Assembly (NCBI RefSeq): GCF_965641715.1
Contig: NZ_OZ282453.1
Reading direction: 5' to 3' (one strand)
Source of the DNA: Escherichia coli
GTDB taxonomy: Bacteria > Pseudomonadota > Gammaproteobacteria > Enterobacterales > Enterobacteriaceae
DNA: 64,000 nt
Position 1 is the first letter of the stretch; each line of letters starts with the position of its first letter. The translations under genes and the position numbers were made by a program. The notes below the pieces were generated by a model that did not search any database, was not told where the DNA came from, and was given only the letters and a program-made list of their open reading frames with translations. Below are positions 284 through 30,164 of this stretch, one piece after another.

Positions 284-2029
284 ATGATAAAACCGACGTT
301 TTTACGCCGGGTGGCCATTGCTGCTCTGTTCACAGGAAGTTGTTTTAGTACGGTAGCCGCGCCACCTGCGCCGTCTCCTGTTTCTTACGGCGTGGAGGAA
401 GATGTCTTTCATCCGGTACGCGCGAAACAGGGGATGGTGGCATCTGTAGATGCTACTGCCACTCAGGTGGGGGTGGATATCCTCAAGGAGGGCGGGAATG
501 CCGTTGATGCCGCCGTGGCTGTGGGCTACGCGCTGGCGGTAACGCATCCGCAGGCAGGGAATCTGGGCGGTGGTGGTTTTATGCTGATCCGCTCGAAAAA
601 TGGCAATACCACCGCTATCGATTTCCGCGAAATGGCACCCGCCAAAGCGACCCGCGATATGTTCCTTGATGACCAGGGCAACCCGGACAGCAAAAAATCA
701 CTCACTTCGCATCTGGCTTCCGGCACGCCCGGTACGGTCGCTGGTTTCTCGCTGGCGTTGGATAAATACGGCACAATGCCGTTGAACAAAGTGGTGCAGC
801 CAGCGTTTAAACTGGCACGCGATGGTTTTATCGTTAACGACGCGCTGGCTGACGATCTCAAAACCTACGGGAGCGAAGTGCTGCCGAATCACGAAAACAG
901 CAAGGCTATCTTCTGGAAAGAGGGCGAGCCGCTGAAAAAGGGCGACAAGCTGGTGCAGGCGAACCTGGCAAAGAGCCTGGAGATGATTGCCGAAAACGGC
1001 CCGGACGAATTCTACAAAGGCACGATAGCGGAACAGATTGCCCAGGAGATGCAGAAAAACGGTGGCCTGATCACTAAAGAAGATTTAGCGGCGTATAAAG
1101 CGGTCGAACGCACACCGATAAGCGGCGATTATCGCGGGTATCAGGTTTACTCTATGCCACCGCCATCTTCCGGTGGGATTCATATCGTGCAGATCCTCAA
1201 TATTCTGGAAAACTTCGATATGAAGAAATACGGCTTTGGCAGTGCCGATGCGATGCAAATCATGGCAGAGGCTGAGAAATACGCCTACGCCGACCGCTCG
1301 GAATATCTTGGCGACCCGGATTTTGTCAAAGTCCCGTGGCAGGCGCTGACCAATAAAGCCTATGCCAAATCTATTGCCGAGCAAATCGATATCAATAAAG
1401 CGAAACCGTCCAGCGAGATTCGCCCTGGCAAGCTTGCGCCTTATGAGAGTAATCAAACTACCCATTACTCAGTGGTGGATAAAGACGGTAACGCCGTGGC
1501 GGTGACCTATACGCTGAACACCACCTTCGGTACGGGTATTGTCGCGGGCGAGAGCGGTATTCTGCTTAATAACCAGATGGATGATTTCTCCGCCAAACCG
1601 GGCGTACCGAACGTTTACGGGCTGGTAGGCGGTGATGCCAACGCGGTCGGGCCGAATAAACGCCCGCTGTCGTCGATGTCACCAACCATTGTGGTGAAAG
1701 ACGGTAAAACCTGGCTGGTTACCGGTAGCCCTGGCGGGAGCCGGATTATTACCACCGTGCTGCAAATGGTGGTGAATAGCATCGATTATGGCATGAACGT
1801 CGCCGAAGCGACCAATGCGCCGCGTTTCCACCATCAGTGGTTGCCGGACGAGCTGCGTGTCGAAAAAGGGTTTAGCCCGGATACGCTCAAACTGCTGGAA
1901 GCAAAAGGTCAGAAAGTGGCGCTGAAAGAGGCGATGGGCAGTACACAAAGCATTATGGTTGGGCCGGACGGTGAGTTGTACGGCGCATCCGACCCGCGCT
2001 CGGTGGATGATTTAACGGCGGGGTACTAA
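284..2029 (+). CDS. ggt: gamma-glutamyltranspeptidase (periplasmic, Ntn-hydrolase)
   Basis: ORF track 257..2029; N-terminus MIKPTFLRRVAIAAL... signal peptide from the ATG at 284; conserved autoprocessing region ...SNQTTHYSVVD...; full-length match to E. coli GGT as recalled. Confidence 0.95.
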   Translation: MIKPTFLRRVAIAALFTGSCFSTVAAPPAPSPVSYGVEEDVFHPVRAKQGMVASVDATATQVGVDILKEGGNAVDAAVAVGYALAVTHPQAGNLGGGGFMLIRSKNGNTTAIDFREMAPAKATRDMFLDDQGNPDSKKSLTSHLASGTPGTVAGFSLALDKYGTMPLNKVVQPAFKLARDGFIVNDALADDLKTYGSEVLPNHENSKAIFWKEGEPLKKGDKLVQANLAKSLEMIAENGPDEFYKGTIAEQIAQEMQKNGGLITKEDLAAYKAVERTPISGDYRGYQVYSMPPPSSGGIHIVQILNILENFDMKKYGFGSADAMQIMAEAEKYAYADRSEYLGDPDFVKVPWQALTNKAYAKSIAEQIDINKAKPSSEIRPGKLAPYESNQTTHYSVVDKDGNAVAVTYTLNTTFGTGIVAGESGILLNNQMDDFSAKPGVPNVYGLVGGDANAVGPNKRPLSSMSPTIVVKDGKTWLVTGSPGGSRIITTVLQMVVNSIDYGMNVAEATNAPRFHHQWLPDELRVEKGFSPDTLKLLEAKGQKVALKEAMGSTQSIMVGPDGELYGASDPRSVDDLTAGY

Positions 2030-2037
2030 GGTTAGCG

Positions 2038-2066
2038 GCCCTCTTCGTGGGAAGAGGGCTATTTTG
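2038..2066. terminator. Rho-independent terminator hairpin shared by convergent ggt and yrhB
   Basis: Stem GCCCTCTTC (2038..2046) / GAAGAGGGC (2051..2059), loop GTGG, followed by TATTTTG. Confidence 0.7.
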
Positions 2067-2351
2067 TCAGGGCAAGCCGAAGGTAGCCTTTTTTATTTCG
2101 TAATCCTGTAGATATTCTTCCAGCGGCTTTGCCGTTCCCAGAGAATGAATTTCACCACTGTCTTTATCAATAATAAAAGGTGCGTTACCAGCTAAGCGCG
2201 CGGCCTCATCTCCAGTTTCGAGAAATTCTCGTGCTTCGAAACAGAAATACCAGCCCTGGCTAAAGCGTCCATGTAGAGTAATGACGACCGGGAGATCTGC
2301 ATCATCAAGGTAATGGTTCGCTTTCGCGAATGCGTCGTGATAAGTAATCAT
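2067..2351 (-). CDS. yrhB: small 94-aa protein at the position of K-12 yrhB
   Basis: ORF track 2067..2351 (94 aa); size and position next to ggt match K-12 yrhB (recalled); the sequence itself was not independently recognised. Confidence 0.55.
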   Translation of the reverse strand: MITYHDAFAKANHYLDDADLPVVITLHGRFSQGWYFCFEAREFLETGDEAARLAGNAPFIIDKDSGEIHSLGTAKPLEEYLQDYEIKKATFGLP

Positions 2352-2800
2352 AATTATAATAAATATTATTGTTGAATGTTATATTATTATTCCTGTGTGA
2401 TACATTGAGCAAAGGTGCATTCATCTTCGTCAAAGATATTATTAAATGCTGGTTTTGAAAAAAGTTCATCGGATAAGATATAGTCACGAAATAAGTATCT
2501 GCTAATATTTTGTGATTTCTTTTTCAGAACGTCGAACGGGATTTTCTTATTTAAGATATCAGAATCTTATGATTTGGGTAAAATTCTAAATAAATCAACA
2601 TGTCACTAAAATCATCATAGCCATTAGCTATTTCGGCTAAAATAGAGACTACATGTCTTCGGTCCATCTCACTTAAGGAGTGTAGTTCCGTTGTAAGTTT
2701 TTCCATAGCTTGCATTGCTAAATTTCGAACAAGGAATTTTCTGGTGGTAATCTCTAAAAAGATGGCATGGTTTACAATGATTTTTGTTTCCTTTTGATTA

Positions 2801-3295
2801 TTATGAACAACTATCCATGATTTCGTTTAAGAATGAAGAGAAATCACTAAACGAACTGAATATATTTTCTGTGCCAATATTATCTCTAATTTCAAAAAAG
2901 TTACTTTTAATGTCATAAGTAAATATTGAAATGCTATCATCCCCGATCACTAACCGTTCTTGTAGATCAGGGTTTATGAAATCATCATTATTTCTATAAA
3001 ATTCATTTACGGCAAAAAGGTTTTTAACTGAAGGTTCTGGAATCGAGAGGCTAAATAATCGCAATCCATTAACTTCGAATCCATCCATTGCTCTTAAAAA
3101 AGTAAGATAATCAGGTTGATTCTTAAAAAGAATACTAACTTCATTACATAACTTCTCCAGGCAATTAGTTGAATTAGAATTAAATTCTATTTGGATTATA
3201 CTTTCAATAAATGATTCCTTGAGCGGTGCTTCAAATGGATAGTCTAAATCATTCATCATTTTTATTAATTTGTTTATTTGGGTTTTAGTCATCAT
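2801..3295 (-). CDS. putative immunity protein for the upstream HNH-like toxin domain (position of K-12 yrhA)
   Basis: 164-aa acidic ORF; its ATG overlaps the stop of the toxin-domain ORF (ATGA overlap at 3292..3295); AT-rich codon usage like the neighbouring Hcp gene. Confidence 0.5.
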   Translation of the reverse strand: MMTKTQINKLIKMMNDLDYPFEAPLKESFIESIIQIEFNSNSTNCLEKLCNEVSILFKNQPDYLTFLRAMDGFEVNGLRLFSLSIPEPSVKNLFAVNEFYRNNDDFINPDLQERLVIGDDSISIFTYDIKSNFFEIRDNIGTENIFSSFSDFSSFLNEIMDSCS

Positions 3296-3678
3296 TTTGT
3301 GGGTTCCATAATATTTTTCATGGGAGGATAAATTGAGCCAGATGGAATGGCCCAGGGAGTGATTTTGCTTTCACCTACTAATATTCCCTTAGCTATTCGT
3401 GATTGCATGTTAGTAAAAACTTTATGATATGGTTCGTTTTCGATTAATACTAAATTTTCGAAATCATTAGTACCACCATCATCTAGAGATAGTTTATGGT
3501 GAACATTATAATTTAGAGGAACATAGCCCTTTCTCATTCTTAAAAGGTCTTCGGTGTTGAATCTTCCAGATGCTTCGGAGGTTTTTGCAAGTTTGATAAG
3601 AAAATTTTTTCTTACAGTTTTGTTAAACTCCTTTCGTAAGTTAGCTAAGTCTTTTGAAGGTCTCTTAATGTATATTAT
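3292..3678 (-). other. C-terminal HNH-like nuclease toxin domain of an Hcp-toxin fusion (yhhZ-like), in frame with the Hcp ORF but separated from it by one TAA
   Basis: Frame arithmetic: 4470-3537=933 (multiple of 3); the 47 codons between the TAA (3679..3681) and the ATG at 3535..3537 contain no stop and translate cleanly (IIYIKRPSKDLANLRKEFNKTV...); HNH-type motif NVHHKLSLDDGGTNDFENLVLIENEPYHK. Confidence 0.55.
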
Positions 3679-4470
3679 TTATATTATGTCTATGCCATCA
3701 AGAAGTTTTTGTTGATCTCTAAGTTTGCCTAAGTAACTATTTATTTCTGTATATGTATCAACTTTAGAACGCTTTGTTAAAAGAATAGATGCTGTTGCTA
3801 TCGCTATGCCCGCTGTTTTTTCATTTAGTATTTGATCATAGCCTTTGATTGCATCTCCACCCAGTTTTTCCGCAGTATCTCTGAATCCTTCAATGTTCCC
3901 ATTGTATACGCCACCAGCAGCAAGTAGCCTGCCAACAGCTTTGCTGTTTAACGTTTTGAAACGATTATTTGTTTGGTTTTTTGAATTTGGTAAAAACAAA
4001 CGGTTATAATTTTCAGGGAGTGCCAAATAGCTGAACTCGGTATTTGCGATAAGATGTTGACAGAGGATAAATTCATAACTAACAGTTATTGTTTCTGTAT
4101 CCAGTTGATTTTGAATGATCTGATGATGAATAGCCGATAAAAAAGCGCCTCTTAGTTGTGTATAATAATACTTTTCCCATCTACCAAATCTATTGATTCT
4201 ATAAAAGTCAAATTTCATAAATAATTGCTCATTATTGTTAATGGAATTAATAAGTAATGGAGTGCTTTTATCAATTAATTTACAAAATGTCATAGCCTGT
4301 AACTGTGAACCAAGCCCCGTATTAGTAATTCTATTTTCGAGTGAGAATGTAAATATTTCATTCTCATGCCCGCTCTGCCAGCGATTACCTATAGATTCAG
4401 TAGTCCCACAACCTGCGGAGATGCTTCCTTGTTGTTCTCCCGTTACTGTCAGATAAACAATATTACTCAT
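3679..4470 (-). CDS. yhhZ: Hcp (type VI secretion tube protein) domain with C-terminal extension; N-terminal part of a yhhZ-like Hcp-toxin fusion ending at an in-frame TAA
   Basis: N-terminus MSNIVYLTVTGEQQGSISAGCGTTESIGNRWQSGHENEIFTFS is Hcp-like; 263 codons to TAA at 3679..3681; ORFs 3679..4470 and 3292..3537 share one frame; combined length ~392 codons equals K-12 YhhZ as recalled. Confidence 0.7.
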   Translation of the reverse strand: MSNIVYLTVTGEQQGSISAGCGTTESIGNRWQSGHENEIFTFSLENRITNTGLGSQLQAMTFCKLIDKSTPLLINSINNNEQLFMKFDFYRINRFGRWEKYYYTQLRGAFLSAIHHQIIQNQLDTETITVSYEFILCQHLIANTEFSYLALPENYNRLFLPNSKNQTNNRFKTLNSKAVGRLLAAGGVYNGNIEGFRDTAEKLGGDAIKGYDQILNEKTAGIAIATASILLTKRSKVDTYTEINSYLGKLRDQQKLLDGIDII

Positions 4471-25742: not shown

Positions 25743-27260
25743 ATGGACAGAATGATGCCAAATAGAAAATGGATTTTGACCTCGCTGATAATGACTTTTT
25801 TCGGCATCCCCATACTGGCGCAATTTTTGGCAGCGGTTGTTGCCATGCTGGGTGTCGGGCTTACCGGTATTATTGAAGTTTGTAATATCCTTATCACGCC
25901 AACAATTTATCTTCTACTCAACGTCTTTATGCTGACGCTGGGGGCGATAATAATATTTTTCTCTGGTCGCGTGTGGGCCGGTGATAGCGCGCCAGAAAAC
26001 AGAGAAATAGCCGTCTGGCGGCAATGCTTTTTTCTCTTACCCGCGCTATTAACCTTGGTTGGCTGGATAATCACGCTACATCTGGCAGATTATCAATTTC
26101 GCCAGATGGGAGCTGGTTGGTTGGCAAACCTTATGCTTCCCTGGTTGGGCGTTTTTTTAGTCTCATTAGTGGGTGGTGAGTACTGGTGGATGGTCATTAT
26201 TCCCGTTGGGGCGCATATCAGTTTTTCGCTGGGATACGCCTGGCCGACCAGATATCCTTTATCCGGCACGTCCGGACTACGTTGCCGTAACTTACTCCTG
26301 TTTCTACTTATCTTACTTGGTATTGTCGCCGGGTATCAGGCCCATTTATATAAGCAGCAAAATCCTGGTGTCGGTGTACGCGAAAATATTGATATCTGGG
26401 CCTGGCGACCCGATAAACTCAATAATCGACTGACGCCGCTGCGTGGCAAACCGCAAATTCAGTTTAGGCAAAACTGGCCGCGAATCGATGGCGCCACGGC
26501 TGCGTACCCAATTTATGCTTCTGCATTTTATGCATTAAGTGTAATACCAGAGGATTTTCACGTTTGGGATTATCTGGAAAACTCTCGTACGCCAGAAGCA
26601 TATAACAAAATCGTTAAGGGCGATGCTGATATTATTTTCGTGGCGCAACCTTCCGGTGGGCAAAAAAAACGTGCAAAGGAATCTGGTGTCACTTTGGTGT
26701 ACACCCCCTTTGCCCGTGAAGCATTCGTTTTCATCGTCAATGCGGATAATCCGGTTAATTCCCTGACTGAACAACAGGTGCGTGACATTTTCAGTGGTGC
26801 AATTACCAATTGGCGTACTGTTGGCGGTAACGATCAGGAGATCCAGACCTGGCAGCGCCCGGAAGACTCTGGCAGCCAGACAGTGATGCAATCACAGGTC
26901 ATGAAAAATGTCCGCATGATCTCGCCGCAGGAAACGGAAGTGGCAAGCGTGATGGAGGGAATGATTAAAGTCGTTGCCGAATACCGTAATACAAACAACG
27001 CAATAGGCTATACCTTCCGCTATTACGCGACGCAAATGAATGCCGATAAAAATATAAAACTGCTAGCGATTAACGGTATTGCACCGACTGCGGAAAATAT
27101 TCGCAATGGCAAATATGCGTACATCGTCGATGCATTTATGGTGACGAGAGAAAATACAACGTCAGAAACACAAAAACTGGTCGAATGGTTTTTAACGCCG
27201 CAGGGGCAGAGTCTGGTAGAAGATGTGGGATATGTGCCGCTGTATCCAACAATGGAATAA
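25743..27260 (+). CDS. membrane-anchored PstS-like (PBP-like) substrate-binding protein: ~6-7 TM N-terminal domain plus C-terminal binding domain
   Basis: 505-aa ORF; N-terminal ~200 aa with several hydrophobic helices; C-terminal domain paralogous to the next gene (IIFVAQPSGGQKKRAKESGV...WQRPEDSGSQTVMQ); start codon uncertain (25743, 25752 or 25755). Confidence 0.75.
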   Translation: MDRMMPNRKWILTSLIMTFFGIPILAQFLAAVVAMLGVGLTGIIEVCNILITPTIYLLLNVFMLTLGAIIIFFSGRVWAGDSAPENREIAVWRQCFFLLPALLTLVGWIITLHLADYQFRQMGAGWLANLMLPWLGVFLVSLVGGEYWWMVIIPVGAHISFSLGYAWPTRYPLSGTSGLRCRNLLLFLLILLGIVAGYQAHLYKQQNPGVGVRENIDIWAWRPDKLNNRLTPLRGKPQIQFRQNWPRIDGATAAYPIYASAFYALSVIPEDFHVWDYLENSRTPEAYNKIVKGDADIIFVAQPSGGQKKRAKESGVTLVYTPFAREAFVFIVNADNPVNSLTEQQVRDIFSGAITNWRTVGGNDQEIQTWQRPEDSGSQTVMQSQVMKNVRMISPQETEVASVMEGMIKVVAEYRNTNNAIGYTFRYYATQMNADKNIKLLAINGIAPTAENIRNGKYAYIVDAFMVTRENTTSETQKLVEWFLTPQGQSLVEDVGYVPLYPTME

Positions 27261-27285
27261 CGCTCGAGAGAAAGGAATCAGCGAG

Positions 27286-28278
27286 ATGAATAAATTCACC
27301 GGTGTTTTACTATTAGGCACGGCGTTACTGGCGGGATGTGTCGACCGGGAAGGGTACTATAACAGCGTCAGGGAAGAAGAGAGCCATGGACTGACGTCTC
27401 TGCGGGGGCAACCTGCATTACGTTACAGCGATGATTGGTCAAGATGGCCGAGAGTGTACGGCGCTACAGCCTTATACCCGCTGTATGCCTCCGCGTATTA
27501 TAAATTAGTACCCGAGCCAAAAGATAAGGATCGAACCTCGCTGGCCTGGCAGGCGTATGGTTTGCAGCAAACCCGAACAGCTGAAGCCTACGATAGTCTG
27601 ATTAAAGGTTCCGCGACGGTTATTTTTGTTGCACAACCGTCGGAAGGACAGAAAAAACGTGCAGAAGAAGCGGGTGTTAAACTGAAATATACCGCTTTCG
27701 CCCGCGAAGCCTTTGTCTTTATCGTTGATATTAATAACCCGGTAAATTCTCTCTCTGAGCACCAGGTTAAAGATATTTTTAGCGGCAAAACTAGCCGCTG
27801 GAATAAAGTAGGTGGTAGTGACGAACATATAAAAGTCTGGCAGCGCCCTGAAGATTCTGGAAGCCAAACGATTATGAAGGGATTGGTTATGCAAGACACC
27901 CCAATGCTGCCAGCTAAAAAATCCACTGTGATTGATCTTATGGGCGGTTTAATTACTGAAGTTGCCGACTATCAAAACACGCCATCTTCCATTGGGTACA
28001 CCTTCCACTATTACGTCACTCGTATGAATGACAATATGCTCAAAATGCGCAAGCAGATTAAACTTTTGGCTATAAATGGCGTTGCGCCTACCGAGGAAAA
28101 TATCCGCAACGGCACTTATCCATACATTGTGGATGCCTATATGGTGACGCGTGAAAATCCCACGCCGGAAACGCAGAAATTTGTTGACTGGTTTATAAGT
28201 CAGCAGGGGCAACAGTTGGTAGAGGATGTGGGGTATGTGCCGCTGTATGAAGCATCCCCCGAATCATCAGGACAATAA
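27286..28278 (+). CDS. PstS-like (PBP-like) substrate-binding lipoprotein, paralogue of the upstream gene
   Basis: Frame of ORF 27223..28278; start MNKFTGVLLLGTALLAGC (lipobox LLAGC) at 27286 after AAAGGAA; 330 aa; shares VIFVAQPSEGQKKRAEEAGV...WQRPEDSGSQTIMKG with the upstream gene. Confidence 0.8.
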   Translation: MNKFTGVLLLGTALLAGCVDREGYYNSVREEESHGLTSLRGQPALRYSDDWSRWPRVYGATALYPLYASAYYKLVPEPKDKDRTSLAWQAYGLQQTRTAEAYDSLIKGSATVIFVAQPSEGQKKRAEEAGVKLKYTAFAREAFVFIVDINNPVNSLSEHQVKDIFSGKTSRWNKVGGSDEHIKVWQRPEDSGSQTIMKGLVMQDTPMLPAKKSTVIDLMGGLITEVADYQNTPSSIGYTFHYYVTRMNDNMLKMRKQIKLLAINGVAPTEENIRNGTYPYIVDAYMVTRENPTPETQKFVDWFISQQGQQLVEDVGYVPLYEASPESSGQ

Positions 28279-28412
28279 TGATGAATATAATCAGACTTTA
28301 TATTTATCCGTTATTTCTCGGCTTTGTTATTGTGCCGTTGTTGGTGTGGCCGATGGTGGTTGCGCTGGCTGCTTGTATTATCGTTGACAAAGTGCACTTT
28401 GTTCATGCCTGA
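28278..28412 (+). CDS. candidate 44-aa hydrophobic small protein, translationally coupled to the lipoprotein gene
   Basis: ATG at 28278 overlaps the TAA of the upstream gene (TAATG); MMNIIRLYIYPLFLGFVIVPLLVWPMVVALAACIIVDKVHFVHA; below the ORF-track size cut-off; no RBS beyond coupling. Confidence 0.3.
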   Translation: MMNIIRLYIYPLFLGFVIVPLLVWPMVVALAACIIVDKVHFVHA

Positions 28413-28440
28413 TGCGGCGTGAACGCCTTATCAGGCCTAC
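28407..28440. repeat. REP (repetitive extragenic palindromic) element
   Basis: GCCTGATGCGGCGTGAACGCCTTATCAGGCCTAC; a related copy lies at 53568..53593. Confidence 0.7.
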
Positions 28441-28547
28441 AAAATCATGCAAATTCAATATATTGCATAAACCACGCATCAGGCAATTTTGTGTTTGTCA
28501 TCAGTCTCAGGCCAGATTGAAATCTGACCTGATCACCTTACGTTAAT

Positions 28548-30053
28548 TTATGACGCCAGCGACAACTTCTGCTGCGTATATTCCACCAGCCACTGACTCA
28601 CACGAGATTGTTGATCCGCATTCAGCCACATGCCTTGTTTTGTGCGACGCCACAGGGCATCGTCGGCGCGGCGGACCCATTCGTGATCCACCAGGTATTT
28701 CAGTTCCGCTTCGTAGAACTCATGACCGAAATCCTCCCCGAGGTCGCTTATCGCCCCCGCATTGCCGAGCAGCAGCTCGCTGTTGCTGCCGTAAGTGCGT
28801 GCGTAATGACGCGCCAGCGATTCAGTCAGGAATGGATAGCGACGGCGCAGACGAGCGGCATAATCGTCGCGGTCGCCTTCAATGGCACCACCCGGTAGCA
28901 CGCTCTCTTTCGTCCACGCCGGGCCAATACCCTGATAATACGGCGTCAGTTTTTCCAGCGCATGTTCCGCCAGTTTGCGGTAGGTGGTCAGCTTACCGCC
29001 GAATACCGACAGCAGCGGTGCTTTGCCATTTTCATCATGAATATCAAGGGTGTAATCACGGGTAATAGCCTGCGGCGAGTCGGACTCATCATCACACAGC
29101 GGACGCACACCGGAGTAGGTCCAGACGATATCGTCACGGCTTAACTGCTTTTTAAAGTGCGTGTTATACACTTTCAGCAGGTAATTGATTTCACTCTCTT
29201 CAATCTTCACTGCTTTCGGATCACCTTTGTATTCCACATCGGTGGTGCCGATGATGGAAAACTCGTCCATCCACGGGATCACGAACACAATGCGTTTATC
29301 TTCGTTTTGCAGAATGTAGGCCTGCTTTTGGGTATGCACGCGCGGCACCACAATATGGCTGCCTTTGATCAGGCGAATGCCATAAGGCGAAGGCAGATGC
29401 ATCCCGTCGTCGAAGAACTGTTTCACCCACGGGCCGGTGGCGTTAACCAGGCCGCGCGCTTGCCAGCTATATTTTTTGCCGGTATCGATATCTTCCGCTT
29501 CCACAATCCACAGGCCGTTTTCGCGGCGAGCAGAGGTGGCGCGAGTCCGAGTAAGCACTTCGCCGCCTTTACGCACCACCATCTGGGCGTTGGCGAGTAC
29601 CAGACGGGCGTCGTCTACCCAACAGTCAGAATATTCGAATCCGCGCTTAATTTCCGGTTTTAACACTGAATTTGCGCCAAAACGCAAACCAGTTGATCCC
29701 GGCAGGCTGGTGCGTTTACCCAGATGATCGTACATAAACAGACCAATGCGAATCATCCACGCCGGGCGCAGATGCGGACGATGTGGCAGGCGAAAACGCA
29801 TCGGGAAGGCGATATGCGGGGCCATTTTCAGCAGCACTTCACGTTCAGCCAGCGCCTCGCTGACCAGGCGGAATTCATAGTGCTCAAGGTAGCGCAGGCC
29901 ACCGTGAATGAGTTTTGAACTGGCGGAAGAGGTCGCGCAAGCGAGATCCTGCGCCTCCAGCATCAGCACGGATAAACCGCGTCCAGCGGCGTCTGCCGCG
30001 ATACCAGCACCATTGATGCCGCCCCCTATCACAATCAGATCTTTGGTTTCCAT
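28548..30053 (-). CDS. glpD: aerobic glycerol-3-phosphate dehydrogenase (FAD)
   Basis: Frame of ORF 28548..30068; start METKDLIVIGGGINGAGIA (FAD-binding GxGxxG) at 30053; 501 aa. Confidence 0.95.
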   Translation of the reverse strand: METKDLIVIGGGINGAGIAADAAGRGLSVLMLEAQDLACATSSASSKLIHGGLRYLEHYEFRLVSEALAEREVLLKMAPHIAFPMRFRLPHRPHLRPAWMIRIGLFMYDHLGKRTSLPGSTGLRFGANSVLKPEIKRGFEYSDCWVDDARLVLANAQMVVRKGGEVLTRTRATSARRENGLWIVEAEDIDTGKKYSWQARGLVNATGPWVKQFFDDGMHLPSPYGIRLIKGSHIVVPRVHTQKQAYILQNEDKRIVFVIPWMDEFSIIGTTDVEYKGDPKAVKIEESEINYLLKVYNTHFKKQLSRDDIVWTYSGVRPLCDDESDSPQAITRDYTLDIHDENGKAPLLSVFGGKLTTYRKLAEHALEKLTPYYQGIGPAWTKESVLPGGAIEGDRDDYAARLRRRYPFLTESLARHYARTYGSNSELLLGNAGAISDLGEDFGHEFYEAELKYLVDHEWVRRADDALWRRTKQGMWLNADQQSRVSQWLVEYTQQKLSLAS

Positions 30054-30164
30054 GCTGCCCTCATTCACTTTCGTTAAAGCTCATAAATGTTCGTTATCGA
30101 ACATATTAGCAAAGAATCGCGCTTTAGGTAACATTGAAAAAACATTTTAGAGTGATATGTATAA

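Follow-up and report, generated by a model that had tools for sequence, protein, structure and literature searches.

The 3′ end of the glgP–glpD island

The DNA analysed here (the window) is a 64,000-nt stretch of an Escherichia coli genome (RefSeq assembly GCF_965641715.1, contig NZ_OZ282453.1), which carries a variable gene island between glgP and glpD. At the 3′ end of this island, two genes for PstS-like proteins (genes 1 and 2) are followed by a 44-codon reading frame, termed ORF44, which begins with the 5′ end of the third island gene (gene 3), and then by a REP element and the convergent glpD. The features of this segment, in window coordinates, are as follows:

25743–27260, plus strand: gene 1, an intact 505-codon ORF encoding a hydrophobic N-terminal domain of ~200 aa (several predicted TM segments) and a PstS-like periplasmic binding domain
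27286–28278, plus strand: gene 2, encoding a PstS-like lipoprotein of 330 aa with the lipobox LLAGC (ORF, Pfam and NCBIfam searches)
28269–28272, plus strand: Shine-Dalgarno-like AGGA, read from the sequence and conserved in all five aligned alleles
28278–28382, plus strand: native 5′ end of gene 3 (codons 1–35, first TM helix), 100% identical to nt 1–105 of Combat11I9 gene 3 (WP_021578030.1)
28382–28383: deletion junction, with 526 bp missing relative to the intact Combat11I9 allele (3049–3574 of the region fetched from that genome)
28383–28412, plus strand: former gene 3–glpD spacer, read as codons 36–44 (VDKVHFVHA) and a TGA, identical to Combat11I9 from 3575 on
28407–28440: REP element, an imperfect palindrome of 34 nt with arms at 28407–28420 and 28423–28436 (86% complementary), the ORF44 stop codon lying in the 5′ arm
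28465–28485: partial second REP, of which ~20 nt (GTAGGCCTGATAAGCGTAGC) present in O157 and K-12 are absent from the window and Combat11I9
28548–30068, minus strand: glpD, convergent and downstream; the PGAP CDS (1506 nt) is slightly shorter than the ORF

Gene 1, which encodes 502 aa from the start chosen by PGAP and is annotated as a PstS family protein, matches the general Pfam family PBP_like_2 with an E-value of 1e-29. Against TIGR02136, genes 1 and 2 score 124 and 119 bits, respectively, under the cutoff of 206.6 required for assignment to PstS, and TIGR00975 matches gene 2 with an E-value of 0.0055. With only the general Pfam model passing, both products are best described as PstS-like binding proteins with a putative ligand.

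A preliminary description of this DNA had proposed that an ATG overlapping the stop codon of the lipoprotein gene opens a short frame for a single-TM-like peptide that terminates within a REP, and its coordinates proved correct throughout. In the sequence TAATG (28276–28280), the TAA of gene 2 (28276–28278) shares its last base with the ATG at 28278–28280; the 44-codon frame at 28278–28412 encodes MMNIIRLYIYPLFLGFVIVPLLVWPMVVALAACIIVDKVHFVHA (44 aa); and the TGA at 28410–28412 lies 3 nt into the REP. The product has one hydrophobic segment, peaking at 2.72 in a 19-residue Kyte-Doolittle window at residues 17–35.

Alignment of alleles identified a second ATG, at 28281, as the orthologous start of gene 3. 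The AGGA is thus positioned 5 nt 5′ of the ATG at 28278 and 8 nt 5′ of that at 28281, and as it lies within gene 2, whose stop codon overlaps the start of ORF44, the two frames have the layout of a translationally coupled pair. The overlap itself is specific to the arrangement shared by O157, Combat11I9 and the window, and involves an A-to-T change at 28279; O145 and Nissle instead have TAA-AG-ATG at the junction, so it was with the lipoprotein arrangement that the overlapping ATG at 28278 arose. A consensus scan for promoters and terminators across 27000–28800 returned nothing above shuffled expectation.

The REP sequence recurs in other E. coli genomes at intergenic positions unrelated to this one, such as the lpdA–yacH interval of UPEC 536, as befits a dispersed repeat. 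The Rfam model naRNA4 scored 34.8 bits over the region 28386–28467, against a gathering score of 59.5; since naRNA4 models one particular REP cluster, this sub-threshold score was not counted against REP identity. A second model, ES036, was also sub-threshold over the REP region (25.6 against a gathering score of 37.6). Folding of the segment 28380–28500 is more stable than that of its shuffled counterparts (z = −3.8), in keeping with the presence of REP palindromes. Among assemblies carrying the gene 3 deletion described below, spacers to glpD of both 136 and 157 nt occur.

A 526-bp deletion in gene 3

As many as 57 ORFs of 20 aa or longer lie in or extend into the 3.5 kb surrounding ORF44, and a length of 44 codons is by itself not beyond chance. 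ORF44 stands out from chance frames by being identical to the 5′ end of a genuine gene. O157:H7 has, from the same ATG, a gene of 603 nt annotated as encoding a “hypothetical protein” of 200 aa (WP_000981061.1), and the same start in Combat11I9 opens an intact gene 3, also of 603 nt. Gene 3 is 199–201 codons long and predicted to encode a multi-helix membrane protein; most of its length is found in 2054 or more of the 5426 complete E. coli genomes, at nucleotide identities of 79–100%, and homologues are found in E. coli, E. albertii, E. marmotae and the cryptic Escherichia clades. Pairwise dN/dS among four intact alleles is 0.23–0.33 (dS up to 0.8), which identifies gene 3 as a real coding gene and one that, judged by these ratios, is under purifying selection.

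Comparing the window with Combat11I9 base by base revealed 100% identity on either side of a clean 526-bp gap, the breakpoints of which were confirmed by blastn coordinates. The DNA lost comprises codons 36–200 of gene 3, its stop codon and 28 nt of the downstream spacer, and the window from 28383 onward corresponds to spacer starting 29 nt past the stop codon of the intact gene (at 3546 of the Combat11I9 region). When the region was searched by megablast against the 5426 complete E. coli genomes, the closest matches were collinear with it, and many others aligned as two pieces with ~550 extra bases between them.

Residues 1–35 of the ORF44 product are 100% identical to WP_021578030.1, so that the N-terminus and start are those of the gene 3 family, and the frame occupies the family’s syntenic position as the last gene before glpD in the island. 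In addition, the family profile matches the representative (P0101) of the 90%-identity cluster containing the 44-aa peptide, with an E-value of 2e-8 over profile positions 1–35. The architecture of full-length gene 3 (~200 aa, several helices and a conserved C-terminal GPISAQLGFALGYY motif) is nevertheless lost; as the deletion has left 35 native residues and has taken the motif region together with every predicted helix beyond the first, ORF44 is a pseudogene fragment rather than a functional member of the family.

Taken on its own, ORF44 could pass for an accidental frame downstream of the lipoprotein gene, in its 3′ untranslated region, with no coding history. Short ORFs of similar size are abundant around it, and the sole terminator-like hairpin in the 27000–28800 scan falls inside it, the number of such hairpins not exceeding shuffled expectation. 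A chance frame would not be expected to begin with 105 nt identical to the 5′ end of a 603-nt gene that is conserved across Escherichia and under purifying selection; the intact Combat11I9 gene 3, and its comparison with the window, refute this reading, to which we attach a negligible likelihood.

The direction of the event also has to be considered, as the orientation of an indel is unreadable from two sequences alone, and the short form could in principle be ancestral, with the 200-codon gene of O157 and others having arisen through a 526-bp insertion. The long form, however, exists as highly diverged alleles in E. coli, E. albertii, E. marmotae and the cryptic clades (dS up to 0.8), and in a metagenomic relative at 37% identity, whereas the short form is near-identical and has a single breakpoint wherever it is seen. 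Moreover, its nine tail codons align to spacer located downstream of the long gene’s stop codon. An insertion origin is therefore scarcely credible.

We consider that ORF44 is the decayed 5′ stump of gene 3, the third gene of the variable glgP–glpD island, and hence an ordinary deletion pseudogene, with a probability of roughly 0.9; the stump’s homology, breakpoints, distribution and annotation status are all directly observed. The preliminary description had suggested that the frame either encodes a small membrane protein or is what remains of the gene ancestral to the locus. The latter reading has held and can now be made specific, as codons 1–35 of a 200-codon gene, and the former is unsupported. 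Conservation of the frame in related genomes, which had been named there as the check, gives a divided answer: the first 35 codons are conserved, but only as part of a much longer frame.

The stump originated from a gene 3 of ~200 aa, with several predicted membrane helices and a distribution essentially confined to the genus Escherichia. One illegitimate deletion took the 526 bp containing codons 36–200, the stop codon and the 28 nt of spacer, and the frame now runs on for nine codons through what had been spacer, to a TGA that happens to fall in the 5′ arm of the REP located between gene 3 and glpD. The junction is unique, and its breakpoints show neither repeats nor microhomology. A REP-mediated mechanism was considered and is unsupported, given this lack of breakpoint repeats or microhomology and a right breakpoint 24 nt before the REP. 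In the intact Combat11I9 allele the gene 3 stop codon sits ~52 nt upstream of the REP, which makes the placement of the ORF44 stop within the REP a by-product of the deletion.

Exact copies of the 44-aa product are recorded on 550 contigs, and 723 index blocks of the public assembly collection contain it. The six places shown all have the context gene 1, gene 2, ORF44 and glpD, which fits one inherited deletion. Complete genomes carrying the deletion include A30, 100181 and ZF8-1, and M26T is the sole substitution between the deletion alleles fetched, too few differences to weigh selection. A30 is the closest complete genome for a 411-nt query (99.5%). Its gene 1 is additionally frameshifted (604–2111 of the fetched A30 locus); that of the window is intact, indicating that decay of the island is continuing.

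RefSeq already flags the stump as a pseudogene: in each of the three deletion-carrying strains fetched (A30, 100181 and ZF8-1), its 105 nt bear the PGAP annotation “hypothetical protein; incomplete; missing C-terminus”. Older records carry the 44-aa product as a CDS, as in EHN93084.1, and in SQM44826.1, where it is named “ybl142”. A search of the literature under the protein identifiers found nothing, and Pfam and NCBIfam scans of ORF44 returned no family match.

Probable residual translation and possible function of the stump

The deletion left the start signals of gene 3 untouched. Since the AGGA and the stop/start overlap survive, the stump is probably still translated, with ribosomes that finish gene 2 initiating again to give a peptide of 43–44 aa with one TM helix. 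According to the summary in PMC12306157 of work by Liang, Rudd and Deutscher (2015), REPs within 15 nt of a stop codon stall ribosomes and down-regulate translation. The ORF44 stop codon resembles the cases summarised there, as it lies within the REP itself and hence inside the 15-nt limit; it differs from them in being an accident of deletion, and in that stalling is here a prediction. By analogy with those REPs, ribosomes would be expected to stall at the stem-loop holding the ORF44 stop, and output would probably be low. Without the ~165 missing residues of its parent, the peptide is most likely non-functional, loss of function being the most economical reading of the sequence.

The principal alternative is that ORF44 is a functional stand-alone one-TM protein, translated together with the PstS-like lipoprotein, which either was co-opted once the gene had been truncated or has kept some of the parent’s function. 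This would account for the intact Shine-Dalgarno-like AGGA and stop/start overlap, for the strong TM segment, and for the abundance of the allele in public assemblies. The stump also retains the most conserved segment of the family, LGFVIVPLLVW, which is invariant in the family alignment. A functional small protein should, however, be conserved as a frame of its own, and ORF44 is seen only downstream of one specific deletion, the same start elsewhere opening a gene of ~200 codons. Its last nine codons are spacer DNA, with a stop codon supplied by the REP at a position that predicts poor expression, neither Pfam nor NCBIfam has a family that matches it, and PGAP regards it as a pseudogene. The variants within its 90%-identity cluster, namely one of 80 aa (stop lost), two of 43 aa, and some with amino-acid changes in the conserved block, are unexpected under constraint, even if their numbers are tiny. 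Taken together, these observations make a functional small protein improbable.

Validated E. coli small membrane proteins of under 50 aa with a single TM helix are encoded by independently conserved ORFs, and have been detected experimentally. ORF44 is similar to them in size and in having a single hydrophobic helix. It differs in that it is not independently conserved, and is known here from its sequence rather than from detection of a product.

A narrower version of this idea, and a very improbable one, is that the stump is still made through coupling to gene 2 and has been kept as a one-helix membrane peptide, contacting the partner of its parent or modulating the putatively paralogous membrane domain of gene 1. 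If this were true, the stump with its retained LGFVIVPLLVW would represent a small protein born from a truncated gene.

As a deletion pseudogene, ORF44 is a textbook case of a deletion leaving behind a neat small ORF that is easily mistaken for a small membrane protein. It misleads by combining a hydrophobic helix with a good start signal and with a stop codon borrowed from a repeat. Its practical value lies in annotation, where the older CDS records (EHN93084.1 and SQM44826.1) stand against the present PGAP pseudogene flag. In itself it is of little importance, being an ordinary gene remnant already marked in RefSeq.

The gene 3 family and its mosaic surroundings

The surroundings of the stump are somewhat more interesting than the stump itself, as gene 3 and its partner hypB (described below) are uncharacterised and almost confined to Escherichia. 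An exhaustive profile search with gene 3, covering 1.84 billion representative proteins, gave 43 hits, consisting of the family’s full-length representative, apparent fragments belonging to that family, and one metagenomic relative at 37% identity. Pfam, NCBIfam and PADLOC returned no family match for gene 3 or hypB, and searching PDB sequences with profiles of the two gave nothing significant. The AlphaFold model of gene 3 (pLDDT 43) is unusable. For hypB, a model with a pLDDT of 80 and a pTM of 0.84 was obtained; a Foldseek search with it against the PDB gave no significant match (best E-value 0.59, TM-scores of 0.30 or below).

Synonymous divergence among the E. coli gene 3 alleles of O157, Combat11I9, Nissle and O145 reaches ~0.8, far above the divergence typical of the core genome within E. 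coli, and suggests that the allelic lineages are old or that alleles were imported from other species of Escherichia.

The gene 3 product (2944–3543 of the Combat11I9 region) can also be compared with the N-terminal membrane domain of gene 1 (window 25743–26387). The two are collinear, with residues 1–169 aligning to 5–170, and PISAQLGFALGY and PVGAHISFSLGY occur at the same residue numbers (154–165). BLASTP gave a 12-residue match at the same residue numbers, shuffling gave z-scores of ~2.3–2.9, and hhalign returned a probability of 66% with an E-value of 5e-5. These values are suggestive of a paralogous relationship, which is not claimed here; if it is real, genes 2 and 3 together would mirror the domain content of gene 1.

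At least two arrangements occur between glgP and glpD: hypA–hypB–gene 3 in O145 and Nissle, as against PstS-like lipoprotein–gene 3 in O157, Combat11I9 and the window. In O145 RM8843-C1 (2019–4101 of its fetched region) and Nissle 1917 (2003–4091), gene 3 is preceded by hypA (236 aa) and hypB (255 aa). From ~35 nt ahead of the gene 3 start codon onward, the two arrangements are homologous at the DNA level; the last ~9 codons of gene 2 (EASPESSGQ) therefore derive from the 3′ end of hypB. Gene 2 is thus a chimera produced by cassette replacement.

The hypB–gene 3 pair recurs in the distant metagenomic relative (contig ERZ28569670, 121–1499), at identities of 49% and 37%, respectively, to O145 2732–4101, and this recurrence marks hypB as the conserved partner of gene 3. 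The PstS-like lipoprotein was also considered for this role and was rejected, as the upstream partner is hypB in O145, in Nissle and in the metagenomic relative. The conserved pairing points to hypB, predicted to be soluble and all-helical, and the membrane protein encoded by gene 3 forming a functional pair.

Gene loss at this locus is recurrent, as an independent deletion produced yzgL (b3427) of K-12. Like ORF44, yzgL is a deletion relic within the glgP–glpD island and is flagged as incomplete by PGAP. In this case, however, the deletion was larger: it brought the 5′ end of gene 1 up against the final 60 nt of gene 3 (2695–2916 of the region fetched from the K-12 derivative EPI300), and it took gene 2 and the 5′ end of gene 3, the latter being the part retained in the window. 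Only incidental mentions of yzgL were found in the literature.

The glgP–glpD island can therefore be regarded as a repeatedly decayed mosaic, of which gene 3 is the constant member, and the glp–glg region is listed as a structural hotspot in a 2026 paper (PMC13185298). Mosaicism is visible within the window itself, where genes 1 and 2 are nearest to those of O157 (98.5%) and the stump is identical to Combat11I9, whose own genes 1 and 2 are 95.2% identical to those of the window. In Nissle 1917 (1–1829 of the fetched region), genes for a fimbrial chaperone and a fimbrial protein lie directly upstream of hypA, in the position occupied by gene 1 in O145.
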